A stretch of DNA of 46,457 bases, from the NCBI GenBank assembly GCA_026328835.1, contig GCA_026328835.1_4850.1, one strand, 5' to 3'. The first letter of the stretch is position 1, and each line of letters opens with the position of its first letter. Positions 2,431 through 46,137 of the stretch are shown here, one piece after another. Position numbers and translations under genes: made by a program. Under the pieces are notes generated by a model. That model was not told the origin of the DNA. It ran no database searches and saw only the letters and a list, made by a program, of their open reading frames with translations. This stretch comes from a phage.

Positions 2431-2732
2431 TATTTAATCTCTCCATTCAGTTCATTAACAATTAACGTTGCATAGCCAGCAATATCTTTCCAGCTGTCAT
2501 CATAAGTCGGGTCGCCATTCAGAATACGCCCAATCTTGTGCTGAATCATGTCGAGCGCCTCGCGCTGGCTTGGTGTCAGATTGTTCCACCCATCCACTTC
2601 GCGCATGACGGTTTTCAGTTCCTGCATGATTTCAGCGCCATCTTTGAATTTGCCGTATCGGCTACCGCGCGCGGTGATGAGTTGCTCTGTTGCGTCAGTA
2701 TGGCGCCTATCGCCCGTGATTTGTGAACTCAT
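2430..2732 (-). CDS. hypothetical protein
   Basis: 100-aa ORF; 1-nt overlap with downstream gene. Confidence 0.45.
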   Translation of the reverse strand: MSSQITGDRRHTDATEQLITARGSRYGKFKDGAEIMQELKTVMREVDGWNNLTPSQREALDMIQHKIGRILNGDPTYDDSWKDIAGYATLIVNELNGEIK

Positions 2733-3219
2733 TGTGATGTATTCTCCTGAATTCTTTTATTTTTGCTTCCGCTTCTCTTATGTCAGAAAAGTAACCAACT
2801 GTGAATCTTTTGCCATTTACTCCAACTCTTGCATGCCACTTGTTGTGCGATGAACTCCAGTTAACCCCCTTGATACCGCTAGTGTTGTTTTTGTTCATTG
2901 CTTTGTTGTGGCTATTCTCAAATTTGCTGGCCTCCCTTAAATTGCACGCCCTGTTGTCATTGCGAATTCCATTGATGTGATCAATCATTTCACTTGCTGA
3001 TGAGCCATGAATACATATCCATGCCAGTCTGTGAGCAAGAAAAGCCCTACCGCAAAGAATTATTTGCACATATCCATCTGGCTTTAAGTAGCCTGCAACG
3101 CTCCCTTTTTCTGCAATCCTATTCCTTGTCTTTAGCCATTTAAATTCCCCAGTTAGTGGATTGTAGTCAAGGTAACTCAATATAAACTCCCTACTCGGCT
3201 CCTCCCTCCTATGTCTCAT
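2707..3219 (-). CDS. HNH homing endonuclease with AP2-like DNA-binding domain
   Basis: HRLAW...DHINGIRNDNR..NLR HNH motif plus NTSGIKGVNW...W.A AP2-like segment. Confidence 0.8.
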   Translation of the reverse strand: MRHRREEPSREFILSYLDYNPLTGEFKWLKTRNRIAEKGSVAGYLKPDGYVQIILCGRAFLAHRLAWICIHGSSASEMIDHINGIRNDNRACNLREASKFENSHNKAMNKNNTSGIKGVNWSSSHNKWHARVGVNGKRFTVGYFSDIREAEAKIKEFRRIHHNEFTNHGR

Positions 3220-9055: not shown

Positions 9056-9904
9056 ATGGCAGTAAGATACGACATATTCACCACACGCGAAGATGGCGAG
9101 GTGATGCTTGATGAGTTGATGTCCGCTGACTGGACTGCGCTACAGGTTAACGTGATGCCACTTGATTCATCTGGCGCATACACACCACTTGTCAGTGGAA
9201 CTGTGTCCGTGAAGGTGTCGCCATTTGAATCTGGCAACTACTGGATTGACGTCAACAATAATAATTATTACGGCGTAGCGCTGCGCCTGAAGATAATCAA
9301 AACGGAATTACCAGCAGCAGTAAGTTCGCTGCGCGTTTCGGTGTGGCGCGCTGGCGTTTCTCCACAATCGGTAGTAAACCTTCAGCCTGACGTGGCGATA
9401 AGCGATATCACCACGCAGTCATATATTGAACGCGCCAATAAGCAAGGCAAGCTGTTCACCGCGTCGCGTAGAGTAACTGATGTTTCTGGCGGCTCAAACA
9501 TTGACAGCATTTTTATCACCGGAACAAAGCAGGTGATATTCAACCAGCGCATTATTGGTTACACAGGGAAAGGTGTTATTGCGTCAATCTATCGCGGCGC
9601 AGTTGCCACAGGAGGCACAGCAGCAGAGATTAATAATCCAAACGATATAACACCACAGGCAGCTACGGCGCAGCTGCTGACTGGCGCTACTGTGACAAAC
9701 ATCGGACAGTTGACAGTTGCAGCAACGTATAGCGAAGGGAATGCATCGAATCAGGGGCAGGGTAACTCGCAGGCTAGATTAGGTGAGCAGATTATCATGG
9801 CACCAAACACGACGTACTTACTTCGCATAACATCACTGGATACTGCGGTGCAGAATATCAATGCTTACGTTTCGTGGTTTGAGGATGATACTTATCTGGC
9901 GTGA
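9056..9904 (+). CDS. putative virion structural protein
   Basis: internal ATG 9056 (MAVRYDIF...) after terminator preferred over track start 8852. Confidence 0.45.
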   Translation: MAVRYDIFTTREDGEVMLDELMSADWTALQVNVMPLDSSGAYTPLVSGTVSVKVSPFESGNYWIDVNNNNYYGVALRLKIIKTELPAAVSSLRVSVWRAGVSPQSVVNLQPDVAISDITTQSYIERANKQGKLFTASRRVTDVSGGSNIDSIFITGTKQVIFNQRIIGYTGKGVIASIYRGAVATGGTAAEINNPNDITPQAATAQLLTGATVTNIGQLTVAATYSEGNASNQGQGNSQARLGEQIIMAPNTTYLLRITSLDTAVQNINAYVSWFEDDTYLA

Positions 9905-9908
9905 TAAA

Positions 9909-9937
9909 ATAAAAGCCCCGTGAAGGGGCTTTTTATT
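9909..9937. terminator. bidirectional rho-independent terminator
   Basis: aaagcccc-gtgaa-ggggcttt between convergent genes. Confidence 0.7.
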
Positions 9938-9938
9938 G

Positions 9939-10478
9939 CTACAGACGCATCGGCATAACAACAATCTTCGCAGTCTCGCCAGATGGCGAATTAATACAGC
10001 AAACTGCGGCATTTGTGTTTCCATTTAGTTCAAACTTAACGCCACAGAATTTAGGATTAAACAGTTTTGCCACTTTCTCAATATTAACCAGATAGCCAGC
10101 ATTGAAGCCAATTTCCTCTGCTGCTTTCGTTTCCTTAGGTATCACGCGGTCAATGTCAGGGAATCGGCCGTCAATCTCTTCGCAGATACCAGCACCAACC
10201 ATTGTGTCCATATGACCGAAATGATAAGTAACGATTCCAGATTTTGTATCGATGATCGCATGGTTATATTTCTTTGTCGGAGACTTGCTTACCTTTACAA
10301 TCACATTTTCTGTCAGCTTATTGTCATGGCTTCCGCCAATAAACGCGCGATGACCGTCAGTTGATGCGATGCGACCATCTTGCATAAAGCAAATACCATT
10401 CAGGTAATACCGCACATCGTTGCGAGCCTGAAAGATTAATGCTGATTCAAGTAATAATTTGCTGATTTTTAGTTTCAT
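9939..10478 (-). CDS. truncated beta sliding clamp (DnaN)-like protein
   Basis: DVRYYLNG, TDGHR, DGRFPDIDRVIP and C-terminal VVMPMRL match E. coli DnaN domain II and the end of domain III as recalled; about 179 aa versus 366; start MKLKISK with RBS AAGGTGA. Confidence 0.7.
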   Translation of the reverse strand: MKLKISKLLLESALIFQARNDVRYYLNGICFMQDGRIASTDGHRAFIGGSHDNKLTENVIVKVSKSPTKKYNHAIIDTKSGIVTYHFGHMDTMVGAGICEEIDGRFPDIDRVIPKETKAAEEIGFNAGYLVNIEKVAKLFNPKFCGVKFELNGNTNAAVCCINSPSGETAKIVVMPMRL

Positions 10479-10675
10479 TACTTCACCTTTATCATGTGCT
10501 GTTTTGCAACCTTCAGGCATTCTTCAAAGATGCCACCCTTCTTTGCGCTCTGATTGCGCTTGTAATACTGAATCGCCGCATCAATTGCCATCTGGTCGAT
10601 ATCTGGCAGCTTGGCGCGAAGTTGTTTTTCGATGAATTGCTCAGCGTTCATTGTTCTCGCCTGCCATAAATCCAA
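10478..10675 (-). CDS. hypothetical protein
   Basis: 65-aa ORF; alternative internal start at 10651. Confidence 0.4.
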   Translation of the reverse strand: MDLWQARTMNAEQFIEKQLRAKLPDIDQMAIDAAIQYYKRNQSAKKGGIFEECLKVAKQHMIKVK

Positions 10676-10868
10676 TAAATTGCTTTGTGCACTTCAGGCA
10701 AAGCCACTTGCATTTCTGAATGTTAATCCCTCCGCAGTCCTGGCCAATACTCCCTCTGTATGCGACGGTAAGTTCTCCGCGCTCACCATCAATATACTCA
10801 TCAGGATTTTTAGTTTCATATCCGCATCTATCACACTTATGGATTGTTATGGTTATTTTCGCCATCAC
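10641..10868 (-). CDS. zinc-ribbon protein
   Basis: CDRCG...CLKC Cys pairs in 75 aa. Confidence 0.5.
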   Translation of the reverse strand: MMAKITITIHKCDRCGYETKNPDEYIDGERGELTVAYRGSIGQDCGGINIQKCKWLCLKCTKQFIGFMAGENNER

Positions 10869-11674
10869 ATCTTCTCCAGAATTGCCATGACCTCGTGAAT
10901 ATCAGCAACAGGAATCTGGATAAACTCCTCATCCTCAGCCACCACATGACCAGCAGGAAGAATTACATGATCTGCTGGCTTTAATAACTCAATCAGGCGG
11001 TCTACTGGCTTAATCTTTTTCGACTTCAGCACCTTTGCCGTGACCTTGTCCTTGCCTTGTGCTTTGGCCTCTTCGACTGCCTCGTCGATAACTTTAACCG
11101 CATCATCGCCATGTTCACGCGTTACTGCTACGGCATTTGCATAGCTGATTTGTCCTGCACTGATGCGCGCTTTTACTTCTGCTGGCACATCACCCAGCGA
11201 CAGGTGCATTTGCACGTCAGATACTGAGCGGCCTACCTTCTTGGCGATTTCTTCATTTGTCCAGCCAAATCCTTTCAATCGCGTGTAAGCCTTTGCACGC
11301 TCAAACGGGTCAAGCTGCTTGCCCTGACTGGATGACACCATGAAGGCGATTTTGTCCGCCTCGTCGCCAGTGAAATCCTTGCACTCAATGCGAACGATTG
11401 GTGCGCCGCGTTCAATGGCTCGTAGTGCACCAAGATAGCGATGCTGACCATCAAGAATGCGGATTCCTTTGTCGTCAGGGATAACTGTTAATGCTGGCAA
11501 TGGCTGACCTGATTCCCAGCACTGAGCGAAATATTCAACGTGTTGCTCATCTGCTTCACGGATGTTATATCCCGGCTCCAGATAGATTCGCTCCACTGGC
11601 ACGAGATAGGTTTTGTTAACAGCAATACCGTTGCGCGTTTCTTTGTCTGAATAGATTTTGCTTAGTGTTTTCAT
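10865..11674 (-). CDS. ParB-like (ParB/Srx N-terminal domain plus HTH) protein
   Basis: DGQHRYLGA GxxR-type motif followed by HTH-like EEIAKKVGRSVSDVQMHLSL. Confidence 0.65.
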   Translation of the reverse strand: MKTLSKIYSDKETRNGIAVNKTYLVPVERIYLEPGYNIREADEQHVEYFAQCWESGQPLPALTVIPDDKGIRILDGQHRYLGALRAIERGAPIVRIECKDFTGDEADKIAFMVSSSQGKQLDPFERAKAYTRLKGFGWTNEEIAKKVGRSVSDVQMHLSLGDVPAEVKARISAGQISYANAVAVTREHGDDAVKVIDEAVEEAKAQGKDKVTAKVLKSKKIKPVDRLIELLKPADHVILPAGHVVAEDEEFIQIPVADIHEVMAILEKM

Positions 11675-12015
11675 TGTTTCTTTCCTAATGCTTTCTTGAT
11701 AGATTCTTCAGCTAACAGCAATTCTTCTGGGTATTGCTCATTCCAGTTTTGTTTGTATGCCTTGCCAAGCATTTTTTGCAGAGCTTCAAGCAACTCAGGT
11801 GCTGCGGCTATTAACTTTGCATTTGCACGCGTTTCATCAGCCTCTCTGGCATGAACATTTTCATAAACAGGTGTTAATACATTTGCCACCTTATATCGAT
11901 GACCAATAATTGCGCCTCTGATTCTGATGTATGGCTTATCTACTTCTTCTGGTAAAACCTGCCACGGACCTTTTGTACCTTTGAATTCATCTTTCATATC
12001 ACTCACCTCTAACAT
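11671..12015 (-). CDS. Ead/Ea22-like protein
   Basis: KGPW ... ANAKLIAAAPELLEAL pattern. Confidence 0.5.
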   Translation of the reverse strand: MLEVSDMKDEFKGTKGPWQVLPEEVDKPYIRIRGAIIGHRYKVANVLTPVYENVHAREADETRANAKLIAAAPELLEALQKMLGKAYKQNWNEQYPEELLLAEESIKKALGKKQ

Positions 12016-12037: not shown

Positions 12038-12066
12038 ACTATAAACACCTCACCAATCTACGTCAA
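12038..12066 (-). promoter_or_regulatory. sigma70-like promoter for the minus-strand island
   Basis: minus strand TTGACG (12066-12061), 17-nt spacer, TATAGT (12043-12038). Confidence 0.5.
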
Positions 12067-20061: not shown

Positions 20062-20085
20062 ATAAGCCCCTCACGGGGCTTTGTT
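20062..20085. terminator. rho-independent terminator
   Basis: aagcccc-tcac-ggggctt stem-loop. Confidence 0.6.
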
Positions 20086-20949
20086 CATTATCTCGTCCAT
20101 TAATTCAGGTGAATATTTAAGCCACTCCGTTGCGCCATCAAACCCTGTCAGTCCTGCACTTTCGTATTTCTTATGATAGTACCTTTCAATAGCAAGAGCA
20201 TCACAACCTATTGTCTTTATTTTTGATATGACGTGAAAATCAAATGGTGTGTTTTTCTTTAACTGACAAACTCTACGCCTAAGATTGTTAGTGATCCCAA
20301 CTTTAATTTCGTTTCCTGAGAACAAGAAGTAAACAAAGGCCTTTTCTTTCAGCTTGAAACCTCCCTTGGAGCAATGAGGGCAACCTTGCCCTTGGAGATG
20401 CTTATCTGGCGTCTTTGTAAACCACCCATGCTCTGGGCATTTTATTCTCATTTTTGTTGTCACATTAATGTATGACAAGCAATCATAATGGTACTTATTC
20501 CCATGAATTATAATGGCATCTTTCTTGAACTTATTGAACCCCTTAGTTACAGATGCTGTAATTTTCTCCCTTGCGCAAACAGGGCAACCACACCCATTAA
20601 GGTGGCTGTTGGCCTCCTGAGAAAACTCAAAGTTATGTACTTTGCATATTATTTTTACTTTCTTGTGACCACCTTTGTATTCAACTTTAGAATAATCATA
20701 AGAGTCACCATGCTTTGCAATCGCATCAGCCACAAATTCACGCGTTGTTTTCTTCTTATTTCCAGAGCAAGAAGGGCATCCAGCTCCATTCAAATGAGAG
20801 TTTGGAGTCTGCTCAAATAGCCCATGCTTACGGCATGTTATCTTTACCTTTATCGAACTTTTTATATAAGAAACAGCATCATAAAGATATTTATCACCAT
20901 GAATATCTCTGGCTTTTATAATAAATTCTTCAGCGGTTGACTTGCTCAT
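20071..20949 (-). CDS. putative nuclease: three tandem Cys/His zinc-ribbon repeats plus T5orf172 (GIY-YIG-like) C-terminal domain
   Basis: three ~65-aa repeats HG.KY.Y...C..HG.F...P..HL.G.GCP.C; C-terminal VYFLF..NEIKVGIT.NL.RR...EWL. Confidence 0.55.
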   Translation of the reverse strand: MSKSTAEEFIIKARDIHGDKYLYDAVSYIKSSIKVKITCRKHGLFEQTPNSHLNGAGCPSCSGNKKKTTREFVADAIAKHGDSYDYSKVEYKGGHKKVKIICKVHNFEFSQEANSHLNGCGCPVCAREKITASVTKGFNKFKKDAIIIHGNKYHYDCLSYINVTTKMRIKCPEHGWFTKTPDKHLQGQGCPHCSKGGFKLKEKAFVYFLFSGNEIKVGITNNLRRRVCQLKKNTPFDFHVISKIKTIGCDALAIERYYHKKYESAGLTGFDGATEWLKYSPELMDEIMNKAP

Positions 20950-27855: not shown

Positions 27856-28344
27856 TCAGAAGGGTATTGAATCATCGAGGTCCATCGGAGGCTCGTTTCC
27901 TCCTTGCTGTGTCTGTTGTTTTGGCGATTGCTGTTGTTGTTGCTGTTGCGGTTGTTGTCCTGATTGCTGGCGTGGTTGCTGACAAGAATCATCACGTTTA
28001 CCGCCAAGCATCTGCATAACGCCACCCATCTGCGGAATGACAATCTCAGTGGTGTATTTATCCACTCCGTTGCTGTCAGTCCACTTACGAGTGCGTAGCT
28101 GTCCTTCGATATAAACCTGCGAACCTTTGCGAAGGTATTCTCCTGCTACTTCTGCAAGTTTTCCGAAGATGACCACGCGATGCCACTCGGTCTGTTCTTT
28201 CTTTTCTCCTGTTTGCTTGTCTTTCCACTGCTCAGATGTTGCAACGGAAAGATTGGCAATTGCAGAGCATGATGCTGAATATTTAACTTCAGGGTCGTTT
28301 CCGAGAGTGCCGACAATAATTACTTTGTTTACGCCGCGTGCCAT
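27856..28344 (-). CDS. ssb: single-stranded DNA-binding protein
   Basis: OB-fold start [20 protein letters not shown], Gln-rich linker, acidic tail DDDIPF. Confidence 0.9.
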
Positions 28345-30711: not shown

Positions 30712-32617
30712 AATCTTTTCTGTGTATTATGTCACGGCCTTTATCGTTAATACGATGTGTGATGCGTTTTGGCGCTTTAATCAACCCCGCATACATCATG
30801 AACTGCTTGGCGTTCTGGCATTTCAGGATTTTCCCAGCTATTGATTTATCATCAAGGTGAGGGAAGATGGCCTTTGCCTTGAACATGTTTTTCATGTGGG
30901 TTGCTCCGCCGTAAGGGTAGAAAACCTCGTTAGCCCAGCCTTCTTTGCCATCACAACGATTAATCCAGTAGCGATATAAAATTCCCTCTCCATCCTTCGT
31001 CAACTGGACTTTGAAGTCAATAACATCAGCCCATTCGTTGTCGGTATACGCACGCTCATTCAGTGCCGCATTTGGGTCTCGCAAAACATGATCGCAATGT
31101 CGGCAATAGCGCGCCGTAGGGTCGTTTTTAGTTCCGCAACCATCATCAAAAATACGGATGCCATGCTTATCGAAGCCGCAACGGATGTAGCTGAAAAATT
31201 CTTCGCAGCGACCATCTGGAGATAGTGCATCTTTGCCAATACAGCGGCGAGCATATGGGCTGTTCATTGTTCCACATTTTGGACACGGAACCTGTTCGCC
31301 ACTGCGTTTTGAACGTTGCGCTTCAGCCTCTTCCAGAATAGGGTCTTCATACAGCTGACCAAGCTCAAACATCGTGCCTGAGAAATCCAGAACCAGATGG
31401 TCTTCTTTATGATACCCGGCATCAATTTGCTCTTTCTTCAGCAGGCGCATTCCGCGACCAAGCAACTGAACGAGAAGGGTGAGTGACATTATTTTTCGTA
31501 ATATGACGCTTACATCCCATAATGGGATATTAACGCCAGTTGTAAGCGCGGCGATCTGGAATGTGTATTTTATTTTGCCAGTGTACGCATCCCTCAGGGC
31601 TTTGCGTCTTGCTTTTTGCCCCATATCTTCAGTAACAATCGCGTAGCTGCCTTCAGGAAGGTATTTAGCAGCCTCCAAGCAATGCTTCTTGCCTGCGCAG
31701 GTAATTAATACCCCATTTCTGTCTTTTGTAAGCTCCATCACTTTGAGCATGATTTTCTGTGTAAGAGTTCCTTGTTCAAGTATTTCCTCCTGCATCTGCT
31801 TGAGCTGCTCTGCGGTGAAGTCCTGCGTCCCGTCAACATCTGAGCCATGGAAGTTATGCAGGTCGTATTGCAAGTCATCAACATCATGAAGACCAAAGAT
31901 TGTTGGAACAACAAATCCACGATCTACCATGTACTTTGTGTCAATGTTTATTATTTCATTTTTCCAGTACGCGCCTTTCATTGATTCAGTACCACGGAAT
32001 GGACTTCCGGTGAATCCAATTGTTATCATCTCATGACCATATTTTTCCTTGCATCGCCTGTTAAGCTCAGTAAGTATTACGCCATATTGTGTTGTTGGAT
32101 TCTCACTAATAATGTCCTGCCATGGCACTTGGTGCCCTTCATCACAAAGGCAAAATCTAGGGGTAAAGTCACTCAACCCACCTTTCTTAACGTCACCGTT
32201 TGATTCATCTTTTTTATCAAAAAGTGCGTTAACTATTGTTCCTTCAGTGCCGCATATAATAGGGTATGCTGTACTTTTCCTACCAAGAGATGCGCTATAA
32301 AGAGAGTTTTTTACACCACACTCCCACATCATTTCAGCATTCTGCTCAGCTATCTCGCCCTGCCTTGAGATTACAAGACCCTCCCACCCCATATCCTGAA
32401 ATCTACTGCAAAGCATTGAAATCATCACGGTCTTTCCTGATGAAACAGACGCTGTAACATAGCTTGGCTCTGGTTTCTTTCCAAAATTACGAATAACCTC
32501 AGCGCACTTTGCGTAAACAAGCCATTGGTAATCATATGGCTCTATGGAACCTAATTTTATTGATTTCTTTAATTTATCTATATCAATTTCTGAAATCATC
32601 TTGTCTATTTTATGCAT
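30683..32617 (-). CDS. superfamily 2 DNA helicase with C-terminal zinc ribbons
   Basis: Walker A SVSSGKT; DEGH box (LCDEGHQV); QLLGRGMR arginine finger; CPKCG and CRHC pairs. Confidence 0.85.
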   Translation of the reverse strand: MHKIDKMISEIDIDKLKKSIKLGSIEPYDYQWLVYAKCAEVIRNFGKKPEPSYVTASVSSGKTVMISMLCSRFQDMGWEGLVISRQGEIAEQNAEMMWECGVKNSLYSASLGRKSTAYPIICGTEGTIVNALFDKKDESNGDVKKGGLSDFTPRFCLCDEGHQVPWQDIISENPTTQYGVILTELNRRCKEKYGHEMITIGFTGSPFRGTESMKGAYWKNEIINIDTKYMVDRGFVVPTIFGLHDVDDLQYDLHNFHGSDVDGTQDFTAEQLKQMQEEILEQGTLTQKIMLKVMELTKDRNGVLITCAGKKHCLEAAKYLPEGSYAIVTEDMGQKARRKALRDAYTGKIKYTFQIAALTTGVNIPLWDVSVILRKIMSLTLLVQLLGRGMRLLKKEQIDAGYHKEDHLVLDFSGTMFELGQLYEDPILEEAEAQRSKRSGEQVPCPKCGTMNSPYARRCIGKDALSPDGRCEEFFSYIRCGFDKHGIRIFDDGCGTKNDPTARYCRHCDHVLRDPNAALNERAYTDNEWADVIDFKVQLTKDGEGILYRYWINRCDGKEGWANEVFYPYGGATHMKNMFKAKAIFPHLDDKSIAGKILKCQNAKQFMMYAGLIKAPKRITHRINDKGRDIIHRKDFAGEQSEAA

Positions 32618-33222
32618 TATTTTACCCTACCAAATTCACCATGAAGACTTGATGATGCTTTTGCATACGCTTTATGTGCATCCTCAGGGGTATTAAAATA
32701 ACCAATAACTTTCTTTTTACCTCTAACCCAAATCTGAGCAACCCACCGTTTCTCCCTTTTGAACCAACTAACACCTTTGTATCCGCTAGTGTTATTTGAT
32801 GATAAGCCTTTATTCCATTTGTTTTGACTGCAATCAGCCAACCTGAGATTTTCTATCCTGTTATCGTTCTTAATTGTATTGATGTGATCAATGTCCATAG
32901 CTCCAGGGTCTTGCTGTTTGCATATGGCCCATACAATTCTATGTGCTTTATAATAAACACCATCAATCATCACAAGCCTGTAATTCATTTTGTCAACCTT
33001 ATTGTCAGCAGGTTTCCCCGGATACCGTGAATTCCATGTTTTGTGATATGGCGTTAATTCATCTCTCCTTTTCCAATACAGGCGTCCATTGACAACCTCT
33101 AACCTTGATGTCACGTAATCAACATCAATTTTTAGCACCTTTCTTTTTTTCTCTAAAACTTTTGAGTCGGCACCCTGAGCAACAGAACTCAGCCCTTGCT
33201 GTTCCATAGAATTCCCCCCCAC
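32617..33222 (-). CDS. HNH homing endonuclease with AP2-like domain
   Basis: HRIVW...DHINTIKNDNRIENLR plus NTSGYKGVSW...W.A. Confidence 0.8.
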   Translation of the reverse strand: MGGNSMEQQGLSSVAQGADSKVLEKKRKVLKIDVDYVTSRLEVVNGRLYWKRRDELTPYHKTWNSRYPGKPADNKVDKMNYRLVMIDGVYYKAHRIVWAICKQQDPGAMDIDHINTIKNDNRIENLRLADCSQNKWNKGLSSNNTSGYKGVSWFKREKRWVAQIWVRGKKKVIGYFNTPEDAHKAYAKASSSLHGEFGRVK

Positions 33223-34317: not shown

Positions 34318-34346
34318 AAACCCTCCAATCGGAGGGTTTTTGTTAT
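34318..34346. terminator. bidirectional rho-independent terminator
   Basis: aaccctcc-aatc-ggagggtt between convergent genes. Confidence 0.7.
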
Positions 34347-34759
34347 TCATTGAACTCTGGCGCTTCAGTCCAGAAGACCACATTTCGCAGCGACTTACCC
34401 GTGTGATTACACCAGTATATTCCTGAGTCATCATACTTAGCAGTAACCTTGACGCGATCAGCATCAATAATAATAACCTCCTGTCCATCTTTAGGGTCGA
34501 AAAGACGCGCATCTTTCCAGTTAACAATCTCATTAAGACTAAGAAGTACATAGCCGGGAAGATAATCGCCAACATCAGCTATGTGAACTATGGTTCGCTC
34601 CGTTCTTTCACCTGTGTAGTCTCCATTCCACTCCCAAAGAATAATCGTGTCTCCAACCTTAAAATCACGGTCATTCTTTCTTAACTCTGCTTTCTTGTGA
34701 CAGGTGACGACAGGCCAGAAGTGCTCAGGTAAGATTTTTAGTTCGTGTGTTTTGCTCAT
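34343..34759 (-). CDS. ASCH/PUA-like domain protein
   Basis: start MSKTHELKILPEHFWPV at 34759; K..E.R.ND..F.VGD pattern. Confidence 0.45.
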   Translation of the reverse strand: MSKTHELKILPEHFWPVVTCHKKAELRKNDRDFKVGDTIILWEWNGDYTGERTERTIVHIADVGDYLPGYVLLSLNEIVNWKDARLFDPKDGQEVIIIDADRVKVTAKYDDSGIYWCNHTGKSLRNVVFWTEAPEFNE

Positions 34760-34760
34760 T

Positions 34761-35015
34761 TCAATCCTCCAATATCCAAACCGAATTACCAATTCGACTA
34801 TTATTTAAATCCTTTGACACAAGGCCATCATTACAAAGAGAAATCAGAACCTTCCGTAACTTTGCTGCTGTCCATTCATCATCAGGAAATTCATTCACCA
34901 TCGATAGACGTAAACTCCACGTAGCCACGGAGAACTTGCGAAAAATTCCAAGCGACTCTTCATCAATGGATTTTCTCTTTCTCATCACGTATAAAACTTT
35001 ATCTTTCACATCCAT
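34761..35015 (-). CDS. hypothetical protein
   Basis: 84-aa ORF. Confidence 0.45.
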   Translation of the reverse strand: MDVKDKVLYVMRKRKSIDEESLGIFRKFSVATWSLRLSMVNEFPDDEWTAAKLRKVLISLCNDGLVSKDLNNSRIGNSVWILED

Positions 35016-35025
35016 TTTCTTGTCC

Positions 35026-35219
35026 TCACTTAATCATCAATTTTGAAATATCAACATAACCAACACAAAATCTGTGCCAGTAATCATCAAGCACGTGGTA
35101 ATTAGATCGAAACCATGCTTTGTTAATTCCACTCCAGAAAAACCACGTCGAATAACCATACGGTCTGAAATGCCATGAACCTTCTGAGCGGCAAAGTTCG
35201 CCTGATATTGTTCTCATTT
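35026..35219 (-). CDS. hypothetical small protein
   Basis: internal start MRTISGEL adjacent to upstream stop. Confidence 0.3.
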
Positions 35220-36842
35220 TAAGTTCCTCATAAATCTCATTCTCTTCATTGCTGATGACAGGATATTCCTGACTGATGAGTTCATCCGCAAACCAGACCA
35301 TGATCCGCCACCAGAAAGCCTGATATTGGATGGATTTTCGGGATCTAACTCTATTGGTGAATGCCTGTTTTCAGATATCGCAATGATGACCTCGTAAGTA
35401 AATTTATCCGGCGTAACCTGAATTGAGTTTGAATCGGCAGCTGAAATTATCTTACTGATTCTGTCGCGACAAAGTTTGTTTTTGACAACTGAAATATAAG
35501 GCTTTTCAGAGAAAGCCTTTGATTCGATGCATTTTTTAACCTTCATAACAATGTTGTCCCACTCAGTGTTTTCAAGGCCATCAAACTCTGCTTCTCCCTC
35601 AAGATAATCACGCAGGTCGTACATGCTGTTCATTACGGTTGCATACGCCCATTCAATATGGCATTCCTTTATCTGCGGAGTCATGCCATTGCGCGATGAT
35701 AAATCAGCAAATGCACAAAGAGTCGCAAGCTCAATAACCATCTGAGCAGAGCGAGGGCCGACGCTACCAATTACACCGGGAATGTTGCTTGACTTGTCTA
35801 TGCGCCTGCGCAACATCTCATAGTATTTAGAAACGCCATCATTTGCATATTCCACATTAAAGAATCCACCTGGAATTCTTGGTTTCCATTCGTTTATTAT
35901 TGTTTTATTGATTTCCATGTCAGGGGTATTCTTAAGTTCTGGCATGTGTTCATGACCTTTAATGAAAAGAGATCTCCCCATGCCGCCATCCTTTTCCCAT
36001 CTCCTTACTGTTGCAATCCCCTGCTCTGGGGTAACCGTTATGAACGGAATGAACCTTACGTTCTGTATTCCCTTCTCGTTAATGCACAGGTCATAACATT
36101 GCATGGCGTGATTTAATCTTCTTCCAATATCATGGTTCATTTTTGCAAGTCGTCGATAATCTATAGCGCCATCAGATTCACCGATGCGAGGTATCATCCA
36201 CCCCTGAGCCTGCGCAGCAGAGAGTATTAACTTCGGGTTTTGAGCACTAGCCAGCTTCTCCTGAAACAATGTAACGACAGGAGACTCAGGGAACCAGTCA
36301 CCACTAATCGATGTCCTGAACCATGAAGCCGTTTCACCAAGCGGTGAGCGCGTATCTGACCAAGACTGAAGATGTTCAGGGCAATCATCCGCGATATAAA
36401 GCAAGAAACCATCAGCCTCAATGAGTCGTTCTTTGATTTGTCGCAATGATGTTACGGTGCTTTTTGATACGCGCGGAGTGATTCCAAGATTCTCTGAGTA
36501 AGCCTTAACAAAATCAGATGGAGCACCCTTACCTGCGCCAGAGCGACCAACAATAAATGTCCCAGTGGCACACTTGTTTTTTGCGCTTGGTCCAATGATG
36601 TATCTGCCAGCCATCACCTGAGCAAGCGCGATAGCACCCGGCAATCTGTACACCTCTCCTTCTTCGCGATTTTCAAAATGATTCTCTATCTCGCACATGA
36701 ATTCACCAAGAGAACCGGGAGGAATTTTGTATCCTTCTCTGAATTCTGGCACGTCAATTTCATCAAGTGGATTTCCAGAATCAGGCTTACCTGTTGGCTT
36801 CAGAGATTCCTTTAGTTCAATGATTTGCTTTGAATCAGTCAT
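35214..36842 (-). CDS. large early protein of unknown function (Gly-rich loop GRSGAGKG; candidate replication-associated protein)
   Basis: 542-aa ORF; second gene of minus-strand operon leaving the repeat-rich region; Gly-rich loop lacks canonical GK[ST]. Confidence 0.55.
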   Translation of the reverse strand: MTDSKQIIELKESLKPTGKPDSGNPLDEIDVPEFREGYKIPPGSLGEFMCEIENHFENREEGEVYRLPGAIALAQVMAGRYIIGPSAKNKCATGTFIVGRSGAGKGAPSDFVKAYSENLGITPRVSKSTVTSLRQIKERLIEADGFLLYIADDCPEHLQSWSDTRSPLGETASWFRTSISGDWFPESPVVTLFQEKLASAQNPKLILSAAQAQGWMIPRIGESDGAIDYRRLAKMNHDIGRRLNHAMQCYDLCINEKGIQNVRFIPFITVTPEQGIATVRRWEKDGGMGRSLFIKGHEHMPELKNTPDMEINKTIINEWKPRIPGGFFNVEYANDGVSKYYEMLRRRIDKSSNIPGVIGSVGPRSAQMVIELATLCAFADLSSRNGMTPQIKECHIEWAYATVMNSMYDLRDYLEGEAEFDGLENTEWDNIVMKVKKCIESKAFSEKPYISVVKNKLCRDRISKIISAADSNSIQVTPDKFTYEVIIAISENRHSPIELDPENPSNIRLSGGGSWSGLRMNSSVRNILSSAMKRMRFMRNLK

Positions 36843-39924: not shown

Positions 39925-40368
39925 ATGGCTAATCCAAACCCTGTCATGAAATTTTCCTCTGAGTACCAGCCTGCTGGCAGAGGATTAAGCTACAGAAACA
40001 GGCTTATTGAAGCATTAAAGCGATGTGGGCTTGGCGAAGAGGAGTTTCTTGACGCATTCATCAGGACGTCAATCAGGATGACCGAGGAAAACCCGACTCA
40101 GGGTGTGCAGATGCTGAAGGAGATATTCCTGCGCATCAGTCCCGTGCAGAAAAGTATGGCGCCTCCGGTTAATTTTAAATACCGCAAAGATGCCACGCCG
40201 GTAGAGCAGATAGAGGATGTCATTCAATCTGTTTCCAGCGGTGAACTCCCAATTGACGTGGCGTCTCAGGTTGTGTCTATGATTAAGGTTGGTCTTGACG
40301 TGAAAGAGTTAACCGAACTCGCAGCGCGCCTTGAGCGACTGGAGAAATTACTGGAGCAGCAACAATAA
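39925..40368 (+). CDS. putative terminase small subunit
   Basis: 147 aa directly upstream of terminase large subunit (interrupted by HNH gene). Confidence 0.5.
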   Translation: MANPNPVMKFSSEYQPAGRGLSYRNRLIEALKRCGLGEEEFLDAFIRTSIRMTEENPTQGVQMLKEIFLRISPVQKSMAPPVNFKYRKDATPVEQIEDVIQSVSSGELPIDVASQVVSMIKVGLDVKELTELAARLERLEKLLEQQQ

Positions 40369-40374
40369 CTCATT

Positions 40375-40380
40375 TATAAT
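40375..40380 (+). promoter_or_regulatory. -10 hexamer TATAAT preceding HNH leader
   Basis: TATAAT 7 nt upstream of structured element. Confidence 0.35.
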
Positions 40381-40387
40381 AATCAAT

Positions 40388-40433
40388 GCGGCAAAGGGTA
40401 GCTCCCTGCCCGGATTGGTCTCCGGGCTGCCGC
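40388..40433 (+). ncRNA. conserved structured 5' leader element (copy A)
   Basis: outer stem gcggca/tgccgc enclosing hairpins aggg-tagct-ccct and gcccgga-ttggtc-tccgggc; near-identical copy at 45501-45546. Confidence 0.5.
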
Positions 40434-40471
40434 ATCCAACCAATAGACCGCCTGTAACCGAGGATTCAATC

Positions 40472-40990
40472 ATGTCATCATTAAAAGAGTTGCCACTCAC
40501 TCAAGAAAGACTTAAACATCTCCTGCATTACAATCCAGACACCGGTGTTTTCACGTGGTTAAGTAAGCCAAGCAGAAGAATAAATTCTGGAAGCATTGCT
40601 GGCAGGATAAAACCTAAGAAGGGGTATGTGGAAATAGGAATAAGTGGAAGGATCTATCTTGCTCATAGGCTGGCATGGCTTTACATCTATGGAACTTGGC
40701 CTAAAGAACAAGTTGACCACATTAATGGCATTCGTAACGATAACAGGATTAAGAATTTAAGGCTGGCCACAACATCACAGAATCAGTGGAACAAGAAGAT
40801 GCAAAAAAACAACACATCTGGAATTAAGGGGGTTAGCTGGGATAATCAACGGGGAAAATGGATAGCCCAATGCTGGTTATTTGGCAAGTATCACAAAATA
40901 GGTAGGTTTTCATCAATTGATGATGCTGAACGTGCAATAAGACAGTTCAGGGAGAAACATCAGGGGGAATTTTGCAATCATGGCGCGTAA
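40472..40990 (+). CDS. HNH homing endonuclease with AP2-like domain
   Basis: start MSSLKEL at 40472; HRLAW...DHINGIRNDNRIKNLR; NTSGIKGVSW. Confidence 0.8.
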   Translation: MSSLKELPLTQERLKHLLHYNPDTGVFTWLSKPSRRINSGSIAGRIKPKKGYVEIGISGRIYLAHRLAWLYIYGTWPKEQVDHINGIRNDNRIKNLRLATTSQNQWNKKMQKNNTSGIKGVSWDNQRGKWIAQCWLFGKYHKIGRFSSIDDAERAIRQFREKHQGEFCNHGA

Positions 40991-45494: not shown

Positions 45495-45500
45495 TTACTT

Positions 45501-45546
45501 GCAGCAAAGGGTAGCTCCCTGCCCGGATTGGTCTCCGGGCTGCTGC
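45501..45546 (+). ncRNA. conserved structured 5' leader element (copy B)
   Basis: identical inner hairpins to copy A; outer stem gcagca/tgctgc carries compensatory change. Confidence 0.5.
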
Positions 45547-45585
45547 ATCCAATCAATAGACCATCCTTATGACCGAGGACTCAAA

Positions 45586-46137
45586 ATGAAATCAATAAAC
45601 CGCAACAAAATGCCTGCAATGGCTCGCCTTTCACATCTATTCATTATTTCCAATGATGGAACAATCAAGCGCAGAATTGCTGCTGGCAATAGAGCGGCAG
45701 GCAGCAGCGCAGAAAGGAGTTTGTGTGGAAGTGACTATACATGCATAACTGTTGATGGCGTAAGATACCTAACCCATAGGGTTATTTGGTTCTTCTTTAC
45801 TGGTGAAGAGCCTGATTATCTTGATCACATAAATAGAAACAAAAAGGACAACAGACTATGCAATTTGAGGCCAGTATCCGCCACAGGAAACAGAAGTAAC
45901 ACTGATTTGATGAACAACAACACAACTGGATATATTGGTGTTTATTGGTATTACTACAAAGGAACTCCTAGATGGAGAGCTGCTTGCAACGATAAACATC
46001 TTGGGTATTACAGTTCGCTTGTCTCGGCAGTAAAGGCATATAATCGTTATGTGACAAGTATTTATGGTGATGAGGCATTAGCAAAGGTTGAGCATAACAA
46101 GAGGATGATCAAAGAATCTTTTGGTATTGAACTGTAG
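45586..46137 (+). CDS. HNH homing endonuclease with AP2-like domain
   Basis: start MKSINRNK at 45586; HRVIW...DHINRNKKDNRLCNLR; NTTGYIGVYW. Confidence 0.75.
   Translation: MKSINRNKMPAMARLSHLFIISNDGTIKRRIAAGNRAAGSSAERSLCGSDYTCITVDGVRYLTHRVIWFFFTGEEPDYLDHINRNKKDNRLCNLRPVSATGNRSNTDLMNNNTTGYIGVYWYYYKGTPRWRAACNDKHLGYYSSLVSAVKAYNRYVTSIYGDEALAKVEHNKRMIKESFGIEL

Follow-up and report, generated by a model that had tools for sequence, protein, structure and literature searches.

A half-size DnaN homolog of tailed phages that retains the clamp-binding-motif pocket and may act as a mini-clamp

What use would a phage without a recognizable DNA polymerase have for half of a sliding clamp? The question is raised by a minus-strand gene at positions 9939–10478 of a 46,457-nt stretch of phage DNA (GenBank assembly GCA_026328835.1, contig GCA_026328835.1_4850.1), which was analysed as a whole and is called the window below. 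A first reading of this DNA, made from the letters alone (the sequence-only reading), had taken the 179-aa product for a half-size homolog of DnaN, the beta sliding clamp of bacteria, without domain I or the initial half of domain III. It had also claimed that the segments retained include the residues lining the protein-binding cleft. All five polymerases of E. coli dock at the clamp-binding-motif (CBM) pocket of beta, as do the clamp loader, Hda and proteins of mismatch repair; this hub is also a target for antibiotics. We refer to the phage protein as the mini-clamp.

Sequence comparison confirmed that the gene encodes a DnaN homolog consisting of domain II and the C-terminal half of domain III. 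A phmmer search of PDB sequences with the 179-aa protein found E. coli beta at E = 2e-12, and essentially all matches below 0.1 were beta clamps; a profile of 109 family members matched beta clamps exclusively, at E = 1.5e-24. The closest cellular relatives are gammaproteobacterial beta clamps. TIGR00663 was matched at E = 1.6e-9 with 37 bits (curated cut-off 137.65), and the Pfam families DNA_pol3_beta_2 and DNA_pol3_beta_3 scored 17.8 and 13.8 bits (cut-off 27). These scores stay under the curated cut-offs because the protein is shortened relative to DnaN. The match to PHROG 3007 covers the full length (E = 6.8e-61), residues 1–179 aligning with 1–186 of the 190 profile positions. At 179 aa the chain differs from the canonical three-domain DnaN of ~366 aa, and E. 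coli residues 1–129 and 253–311 have no counterpart in it.

The assignment of the C-terminal part rests on several results. Its 66 aa gave a local BLOSUM62 score of 68 against the second half of domain III (III-b, E. coli 312–366), compared with 38 against the first half (III-a), and a MAFFT alignment with six distant phage homologs left a gap of ~60 aa at E. coli 253–311. The main HMMER alignment had placed this part on the first half of domain III; that placement was rejected on the basis of the two scores, the EIGFN..Y and VVMPMRL motifs and the multiple alignment. The half-size architecture of the sequence-only reading is therefore upheld. The same reading had raised the possibility of a frameshifted full-length dnaN. 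We rejected a frameshifted or split gene since tblastn with E. coli DnaN matched a single segment of the window, 9957–10460, and the upstream open reading frames (ORFs) encode unrelated small proteins.

In order to examine the pocket we used the residue list of a review (PMC11139829), which assigns R152, L155, T172, G174, H175, R176, L177, P242, R246, V247, V360 and M362 to subsite I and H175, N320, Y323, V344, M362, P363, M364 and R365 to subsite II. All 18 listed positions fall inside domain II and the C-terminal half of domain III; domain II makes up one side of the pocket and the domain III half supplies the remaining residues. Sixteen of the 18 distinct pocket residues are identical to those of E. 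coli, compared with 27.5% of the other 149 aligned positions (Fisher p = 6e-7). The exceptions are L177, replaced by alanine (A45, directly after TDGHR), and V344, replaced by threonine; V344 is listed in the same review as one of two non-conserved pocket residues. The blocks quoted in the sequence-only reading, DVRYYLNG, TDGHR, DGRFPDIDRVIP and VVMPMRL, are all where it had placed them, and its claim that the cleft residues are retained proved correct. The EIGFNAGY block (Table 1) was absent from it. N20, just before DVRYYLNG, corresponds to the DNA-contact residue Q149 of E. coli.

The pocket is also the best-conserved part of the protein across a large family. An exhaustive HMMER scan over 1.84 billion cluster representatives (50% identity) returned 1942 matches; among the best 150, 131 are 160–220 aa long, and full-length DnaN (373 aa) enters the list only at E ~5e-13. 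Members are typically ~165–215 aa in length and come from tailed-phage genomes. In the 131 short homologs the mean identity was 0.70 at pocket positions versus 0.29 elsewhere, and pocket positions supply most of the best-conserved columns, with identities of 0.97 for R152, 0.99 for G174, 0.99 for P242, 0.95 for M362, 0.93 for H175 and 0.93 for Y323. These conservation figures carry some ascertainment bias because the same motifs drive the detection of homologs. Members of 236–244 aa were considered as intermediates with two full domains and rejected as such; their architecture does not differ, the extra length being due to loop insertions and C-terminal tails. Taken together, the sequence data strongly support the view that the mini-clamp binds something by means of a bona fide CBM pocket. 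The gene is under purifying selection, as judged from a ratio of nonsynonymous to synonymous substitution rates (dN/dS) of 0.17 against the ortholog of phage swi2.

A homolog was present in 291 phage records, from phages of Salmonella, Escherichia, Vibrio, Klebsiella, Acinetobacter, Burkholderia, Proteus, Pseudomonas and other hosts; the genera include Swiduovirus, Skatevirus, Skarprettervirus, Kagunavirus, Gorganvirus, Lietduovirus and Ryyoungvirus. Family members carry the label RusA-like Holliday junction resolvase in PHROG 3007 and in RefSeq (NC_054649, NC_054636, NC_054651 and others), while the GenBank labels for the gene vary between DNA polymerase III beta subunit and DNA polymerase. 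A RusA-like resolvase was rejected, since a Pfam scan to E = 1 gave DNA_pol3_beta_2, DNA_pol3_beta_3 and one noise hit. The RusA label appears to be a propagating annotation error, the only detectable similarity being to DnaN and none to RusA or a polymerase, and the 'RusA-like Holliday junction resolvase' and 'DNA polymerase' labels in PHROG, RefSeq and GenBank merit correction.

The segments that are missing are as informative as those retained. The residues of the canonical beta dimer interface, I78, F106, I272 and L273, and the ion pairs of K74, R96, R103 and R105 with E298–E304 are all within deleted segments, so that by alignment every one of them is lost. The calculated isoelectric point (pI) of the mini-clamp is 8.8 and the family median 8.5, compared with 5.25 for E. 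coli beta. Basic residues are conserved at R19, K70, K135, K138 and K143, on or near helices, with K135 and K138 on the helix of the half-domain. An acidic pI (4.9) has been described as typical for a clamp that works with a loader (PMC4889955), and the basic pI argues against loader dependence of the mini-clamp.

We used AlphaFold (AF2) on single chains in which copies of the protein were fused by 30-residue Gly-Ser linkers, with alignments of identically fused homologs (34 sequences for the fused dimer and 16 for the fused tetramer). In the protomer the secondary structure assigned by DSSP was strand-helix-strand x4, a 9-residue loop, strand x3, the connector and strand-helix-strand x3, with the half-domain formed by strand 122–126, helix 127–140 and strands 146–150, 158–163 and 169–174. 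No helix was predicted between strands 59–63 and 73–77, at a predicted local distance difference test score (pLDDT) above 90. Of 109 family members, 92 have the loop found there (Table 1) at a constant length of 11 residues, and 81% of the 131 short homologs keep Pro67.

The fused dimer was predicted with a mean pLDDT of 86 and a predicted template modelling score (pTM) of 0.80, disorder being confined to the linker. Two 179-aa bodies floating independently would give a pTM near 0.45–0.5, and a defined homodimer is indicated because the observed score is well above that reference. Superpositions of the dimer model covered 154–163 residues at 2.5–3.0 Å, and one clamp was covered over 208 residues; the protomer is thus predicted to keep a native-like geometry of 1.5 domains. 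Foldseek was uninformative on the dimer, a sequential alignment being forced through both copies. The fused tetramer had a mean pLDDT of 75 and a pTM of 0.62. In this model the fit to beta chains extends over 197–214 aa and that to a single-chain PCNA ring (3k4x_A) over 343 aa at 4.2 Å, compared with 151 aa for the dimer model, as would be expected if protomers of the same orientation face each other across a six-domain ring. AlphaFold may be biased toward clamp geometry. On these predictions a homodimer is likely, and a ring-like tetramer of six domain-equivalents is plausible but unproven. The non-canonical ring of 1.5 domains per protomer that the sequence-only reading had flagged as speculation thus gains moderate support from the models. 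We infer that two half-domains would pair about a two-fold axis and rebuild a pseudo-domain. Such pairing would imitate the pseudo-dyad inside each clamp domain, and the resulting ring would have D2 symmetry and would not be head-to-tail.

The genomic setting bears on what such a protein could do. The window is a complete siphovirus genome of ~46.5 kb, in agreement with the earlier view of a phage gene, and over the region is ~90% identical in nucleotide sequence to phages of the Swiduovirus/Skatevirus group, swi2 (Swiduovirus), C1, Sf11, IME207 and Bas78 SandraMuster (Skatevirus). Of these, swi2 and C1 are Escherichia phages and Sf11 is a Shigella phage of 46,454 bp. A replication/recombination module at 27.8–36.8 kb encodes a single-stranded DNA-binding protein (SSB), an Erf annealase, a PD-(D/E)XK exonuclease, a superfamily 2 (SF2) helicase, an HNH endonuclease, a DnaG-type primase and a 542-aa protein. 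Pfam and PHROG profiles detected no DNA polymerase domain when every large ORF was scanned, and the annotation of swi2 lists none either; at this level of detection the earlier statement that the genome encodes no DNA polymerase holds. The SSB gene (27856–28344, minus strand; 162 aa, PF00436) encodes a Gln-rich linker and the C-terminus MDLDDSIPF. This resembles the acidic tip of E. coli SSB (MDFDDDIPF), which docks chi and other host proteins, and would suggest reliance on host replisome partners.

In other phages the homolog may lie within the replication module: beside the DNA polymerase gene in BcepC6B, beside helicase and VRR-NUC genes in LIET2, and near the primase and helicase genes in Skarpretter. 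In Burkholderia phage BcepC6B (2835–5573), a BPP-1-like podovirus, the homolog gp31 is directly 3′ of the DNA polymerase gp32. No closer linkage to a polymerase was seen in the family, yet gp32 has no terminal CBM. A conserved neighbouring gene was not found, the contexts varying among the genera compared.

As a tentative preference, which we hold to be possible rather than probable, the protein would be a self-assembling, probably loader-independent mini-clamp or adaptor that holds CBM-bearing host proteins, above all the core of DNA polymerase III (Pol III), on phage DNA. The pocket would bind such proteins, most plausibly the alpha or epsilon subunit of Pol III, with delta, Hda, and repair and translesion factors as further possible partners. 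The mini-clamp, basic and predicted to be multi-subunit, may need no host clamp loader for its association with phage DNA, and the host polymerase would in this way be tethered to replication or recombination intermediates of a phage that has a helicase, a primase, an SSB and a recombinase of its own and lacks a polymerase. We favour this mini-clamp because of the basic charge, the conserved helix lysines and the predicted clamp-like self-assembly; because the replication module lacks a polymerase, is otherwise self-sufficient and includes an SSB with a host-type tail; and because of the location within replication modules in LIET2, Skarpretter and BcepC6B. A more far-reaching version, which we consider unlikely, is a fourth sliding-clamp architecture. 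Four 1.5-domain protomers would form a six-domain ring with two kinds of two-fold (head-to-head) interfaces, one pseudo-domain being built from two half-domains that belong to different subunits; this ring would lack front/back polarity, would display bacterial CBM pockets on both faces and would assemble on DNA without a loader, and polymerase-less phages would commandeer the host Pol III core with it.

Several results weigh against the mini-clamp and its ring. The oligomer models depend on the linker-fusion workaround, and the predicted interfaces are judged from scores and not from coordinates. The tetramer is only moderately confident, its five models being uneven with mean pLDDT from 75 down to 55. 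The second channel-lining helix of domain II is predicted to be lost, so that a ring would have 8 helices and not 12; AF2 gives two long helices for each 1.5-domain protomer, while the canonical clamp has two per domain and twelve in all. Most DNA-contact residues of E. coli beta belong to the absent domain I. A scan of every ORF of the phage, together with the polymerases of XY2 and BcepC6B, for QLxLF/QxxLxF-like CBMs gave nothing convincing. The gene of the phage studied here, like those of Kagunavirus and Gorganvirus, is placed among structural genes of the opposite strand and not in the replication module. Homologs also occur in phages that encode a polymerase, Kagunavirus XY2 and BcepC6B, and an exclusive link of the family to polymerase-less genomes was consequently rejected. 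Finally, horizontally acquired clamp homologs were judged likely dispensable for replication in a 2011 survey (Kazlauskas and Venclovas, NAR 2011, PMC3201878).

The main rival is a soluble decoy, an idea that the sequence-only reading had also put forward as speculation; it would titrate CBM-bearing host proteins such as Hda, delta, Pol II, Pol IV, Pol V and MutS/MutL off the host beta clamp, so that host replication, repair or DnaA's regulatory inactivation (RIDA) would be shut down or deregulated to the benefit of the phage. Strong conservation is confined to the pocket and its surroundings, and everything for a canonical ring and for the contact with the delta wrench has been deleted. As is often the case for host-takeover genes, this one belongs to a small operon that is set apart from the replication genes and has a sigma-70-like promoter, and there is a parallel in the CBM-bearing MuC, which on overexpression disturbs the interplay of the clamp with Hda and leads to over-initiation (PMC12867686). 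The phage, however, appears to need host Pol III, and an indiscriminate sink for CBMs would harm the phage itself. The basic pI, the conserved helix lysines and the predicted self-assembly into clamp-like arcs or rings would all be superfluous in a soluble decoy, and in several other phages the gene is found within replication modules. We regard the decoy as rather unlikely, though it is the strongest of the competing explanations. A further reading is hetero-assembly, in which edges exposed by the truncation would pair with beta of the host, either as monomers or as opened clamps, and give hybrid or poisoned clamps or mark clamps on phage DNA. The protomer would have unsatisfied clamp-type edges and an exposed half-domain core, and the host's own clamps are of the gammaproteobacterial type to which the mini-clamp is closest. 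Yet the residues of the beta–beta contact are missing, and in the AF2 homo-oligomer (pTM 0.80) the free surfaces are predicted to be satisfied already; we consider hetero-assembly improbable.

Two further explanations were weighed against the mini-clamp. In the case of transcription coupling, a mini-clamp on replicating DNA would recruit a CBM-bearing phage activator for late genes, for which the T4 clamp gp45 with gp33/gp55 and the host beta clamp with MuC of Mu set precedents as late-transcription co-activators (PMC12867686). The location inside the late structural region, beside a gene for a ParB/KorB helix-turn-helix (HTH)-like protein, would fit. But a terminal CBM is absent from every phage ORF, and the operon contains a single loose match, QMHLSL, inside the HTH region of the ParB-like protein; no sigma-like or Mor/MuC-like protein was found among 35 ORFs scanned against family libraries; and the genomic neighbourhood varies across the family. 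We judge this coupling very improbable. The assumption of Kazlauskas and Venclovas that horizontally transferred clamp homologs are dispensable (PMC3201878) could also be extended to a functionless, decaying relic of a host dnaN. Purifying selection contradicts a loss of function, the dN/dS being low; the architecture is kept in at least 131 clusters (50% identity) and in the 291 phage records from many genera and hosts, and the model is confident (pLDDT 86). A relic is extremely unlikely.

Comparison with known systems places the mini-clamp apart from each of them. It shares with E. coli beta (PDB 2POL/1MMI; PF00712, PF02767, PF02768; TIGR00663) a clear homology, 16 of 18 pocket residues and the VVMPMRL C-terminus. 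It differs in its length (179 versus 366 aa), in the lack of domain I, the first domain III half and the dimer-interface residues, in the predicted absence of the second domain II helix, in a pI of 8.8 versus 5.25 and in Pfam and TIGRFAM scores below the cut-offs. Another N-terminally truncated beta without domain I is the UV-inducible beta* of E. coli, which Skaliter, Paz-Elizur and Livneh are said to have described in 1996 as the product of an internal dnaN start; it reportedly acts as a processivity clamp, as a trimer that re-forms a six-domain ring. Beta* keeps the full domains II and III (~26 kDa), whereas the mini-clamp, with 1.5 domains, would reach six only as four copies and belongs to a separate, diverged family. 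In T4 gp45 and PCNA (two domains x 3) each protomer contributes whole domains, the symmetry is head-to-tail C3, the pI is acidic and a loader is needed; an assembly of 4 x 1.5 domains would split a domain between subunits and would require two-fold (head-to-head) interfaces. The best functional analogy for a basic, self-associating mini-clamp is probably offered by the herpesviral factors UL42, UL44 and BMRF1, with which its predicted clamp fold and its basic pI agree. UL44 forms a two-fold, head-to-head, C-shaped dimer. The herpesviral factors are PCNA-like two-domain proteins without sequence relation to the mini-clamp and bind the C-terminus of their own viral polymerase, whereas the mini-clamp has a bacterial CBM pocket and belongs to a phage without a polymerase. 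Herpesviral clamp proteins bind DNA directly and use no clamp loader (PMC4889955). MuC of Mu, a CBM-bearing activator (PMC12867686), and Gp168 of Twort (PDB 7EVP) address the same beta-clamp interaction hub; they are, however, ligands or inhibitors of the host clamp, while the mini-clamp is a copy of the clamp's receptor site.

The family probably corresponds to the short phage polIII-beta homologs of the 2011 survey (PMC3201878); our matches include Pseudomonas phage TC7 and Burkholderia phage relatives. The survey covers five cases within a single sentence, and its main text has no pocket analysis, oligomer model or function. Relative to that account, the third domain is here only a half-domain and the family is large, with ~130 clusters at 50% identity. 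In the literature on short phage DnaN homologs we found no function assigned, the 2011 survey being the only report that turned up; no description was found of the half-domain architecture, of how the pocket is conserved, of the missing helix, of the basic charge or of the predicted oligomers, and a transcriptome paper on Kagunavirus K1B4 does not mention the gene. The gene family was thus already glimpsed in 2011, and its architecture and pocket conservation appear to be undescribed. In this widespread phage family the clamp has been reduced almost to its pocket, under strong selection, and the family offers a natural minimal pocket module. It could explain how host Pol III is recruited by small siphoviruses and podoviruses that have a helicase, a primase, an SSB and a recombinase and lack a polymerase or, alternatively, how such phages disarm host replication or repair. 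A ring of 4 x 1.5 domains, if true, would be a new way of building a sliding clamp, and probably a loader-independent one. The protein gives a sharp, testable lead on the interface of small phages with the host replisome.

Five minus-strand genes (12015 to 9939) form a block that ends with the mini-clamp gene, with plus-strand genes on either side and the capsid genes to the left; the coordinates of the operon and of the protein segments are collected in Table 1. The gene order is identical in annotated swi2, gp78 to gp73. The ATG at 10476–10478 overlaps the TAA stop codon (10478–10480) of the upstream 65-aa ORF in the form TAATG, suggesting translational coupling of the two genes. The hairpin downstream is located between the mini-clamp gene and a convergent plus-strand gene ending at 9904, and is terminator-like for both. 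Sigma-70-like sites in the region are not more numerous than expected from shuffled sequence. PADLOC gave no defence or anti-defence match for any gene of the operon. An alternative in-frame ATG at 10520 would give a 193-aa product; 10478 was chosen as the start because the longer reading overlaps the upstream gene. Many database homologs are called at 192–193 aa, probably by the same mis-start. The ParB-like protein contains QMHLSL at aa 155–160, a loose CBM-like hexamer that is probably inside a folded HTH region.

Table 1. Features of the mini-clamp gene, its product and its operon, in window coordinates
Feature	Position	Strand	Basis or remark
Mini beta-clamp coding sequence, 179 aa (MKLKISK...VVMPMRL)	9939..10478	-	ORF list; stop codon 9939-9941
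Domain II homolog, aa 1-112 (E. coli ~130-247)	10143..10478	-	alignments
Connector and one beta-alpha-beta-beta-beta half-domain, aa 113-179	9942..10142	-	homologous to domain III C-terminal half, E. coli 312-366
DVRYYLNG, aa 21-28, identical to E. coli 150-157	10395..10418	-	pocket R23 (=R152), L26 (=L155)
TDGHR, aa 40-44 (E. coli 172-176)	10347..10361	-	pocket T40 (=T172), G42 (=G174), H43 (=H175), R44 (=R176)
Loop SKSPTKKYN in place of second domain II helix (E. coli ~197-208)	10263-10289	-	AF2 prediction
DGRFPDIDRVIP, inter-domain connector, aa 103-114, aligned with E. coli DGRFPDYRRVLP	10137..10172	-	pocket P107 (=P242), R111 (=R246), V112 (=V247)
EIGFNAGY, aa 122-129 (E. coli EIGFNVSY 316-323)	10092..10115	-	subsite II N126 (=N320), Y129 (=Y323)
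C-terminal VVMPMRL, aa 173-179 (E. coli 360-366)	9942..9962	-	pocket V173 (=V360), M175 (=M362), P176 (=P363), M177 (=M364), R178 (=R365)
Shine-Dalgarno-like AAAGGTG	10484-10490	-	5' of mini-clamp ATG
Terminator-like G+C-rich hairpin, 9 pairs, A and T runs either side	9911-9933		between convergent genes
Sigma-70-like promoter candidate, TTGACG-17-TATAGT, 10/12 matches	12038..12066	-	5' of operon; consensus match alone
114-aa gene, phrog_1273	11671-12015	-	upstream gene in mini-clamp operon
ParB/KorB-HTH-like 269-aa gene	10865-11674	-	upstream gene in mini-clamp operon
Gene for 75-aa protein with two CxxC pairs	10641-10868	-	upstream gene in mini-clamp operon
65-aa gene, phrog_4439	10478-10675	-	directly upstream of mini-clamp

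Some other genes of the window were noted. The 542-aa protein of the replication region (35214–36842, minus strand) has no sequence match in Pfam, NCBIfam or PDB; its one match, to phrog_3022 ('DNA primase', E = 6e-13), is weak. The protein may be an initiator or AAA protein, and in Skarpretter an 'AAA domain' protein is placed like it. Four ORFs are HNH_3 paralogs, at 2707–3219 and 32617–33222 on the minus strand and at 40331–40990 and 45499–46137 on the plus strand, three of them also with AP2. Together with a T5orf172/MUG113-type ORF at 20071–20949 (minus strand), they are scattered among the replication and packaging genes; for a genome of 46 kb, homing-endonuclease-like genes thus seem to be unusually many. 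A DUF3850 ORF (ASCH-like; 'RNA-binding protein' in PHROG) at 34343–34792, minus strand, adjoins the primase gene.

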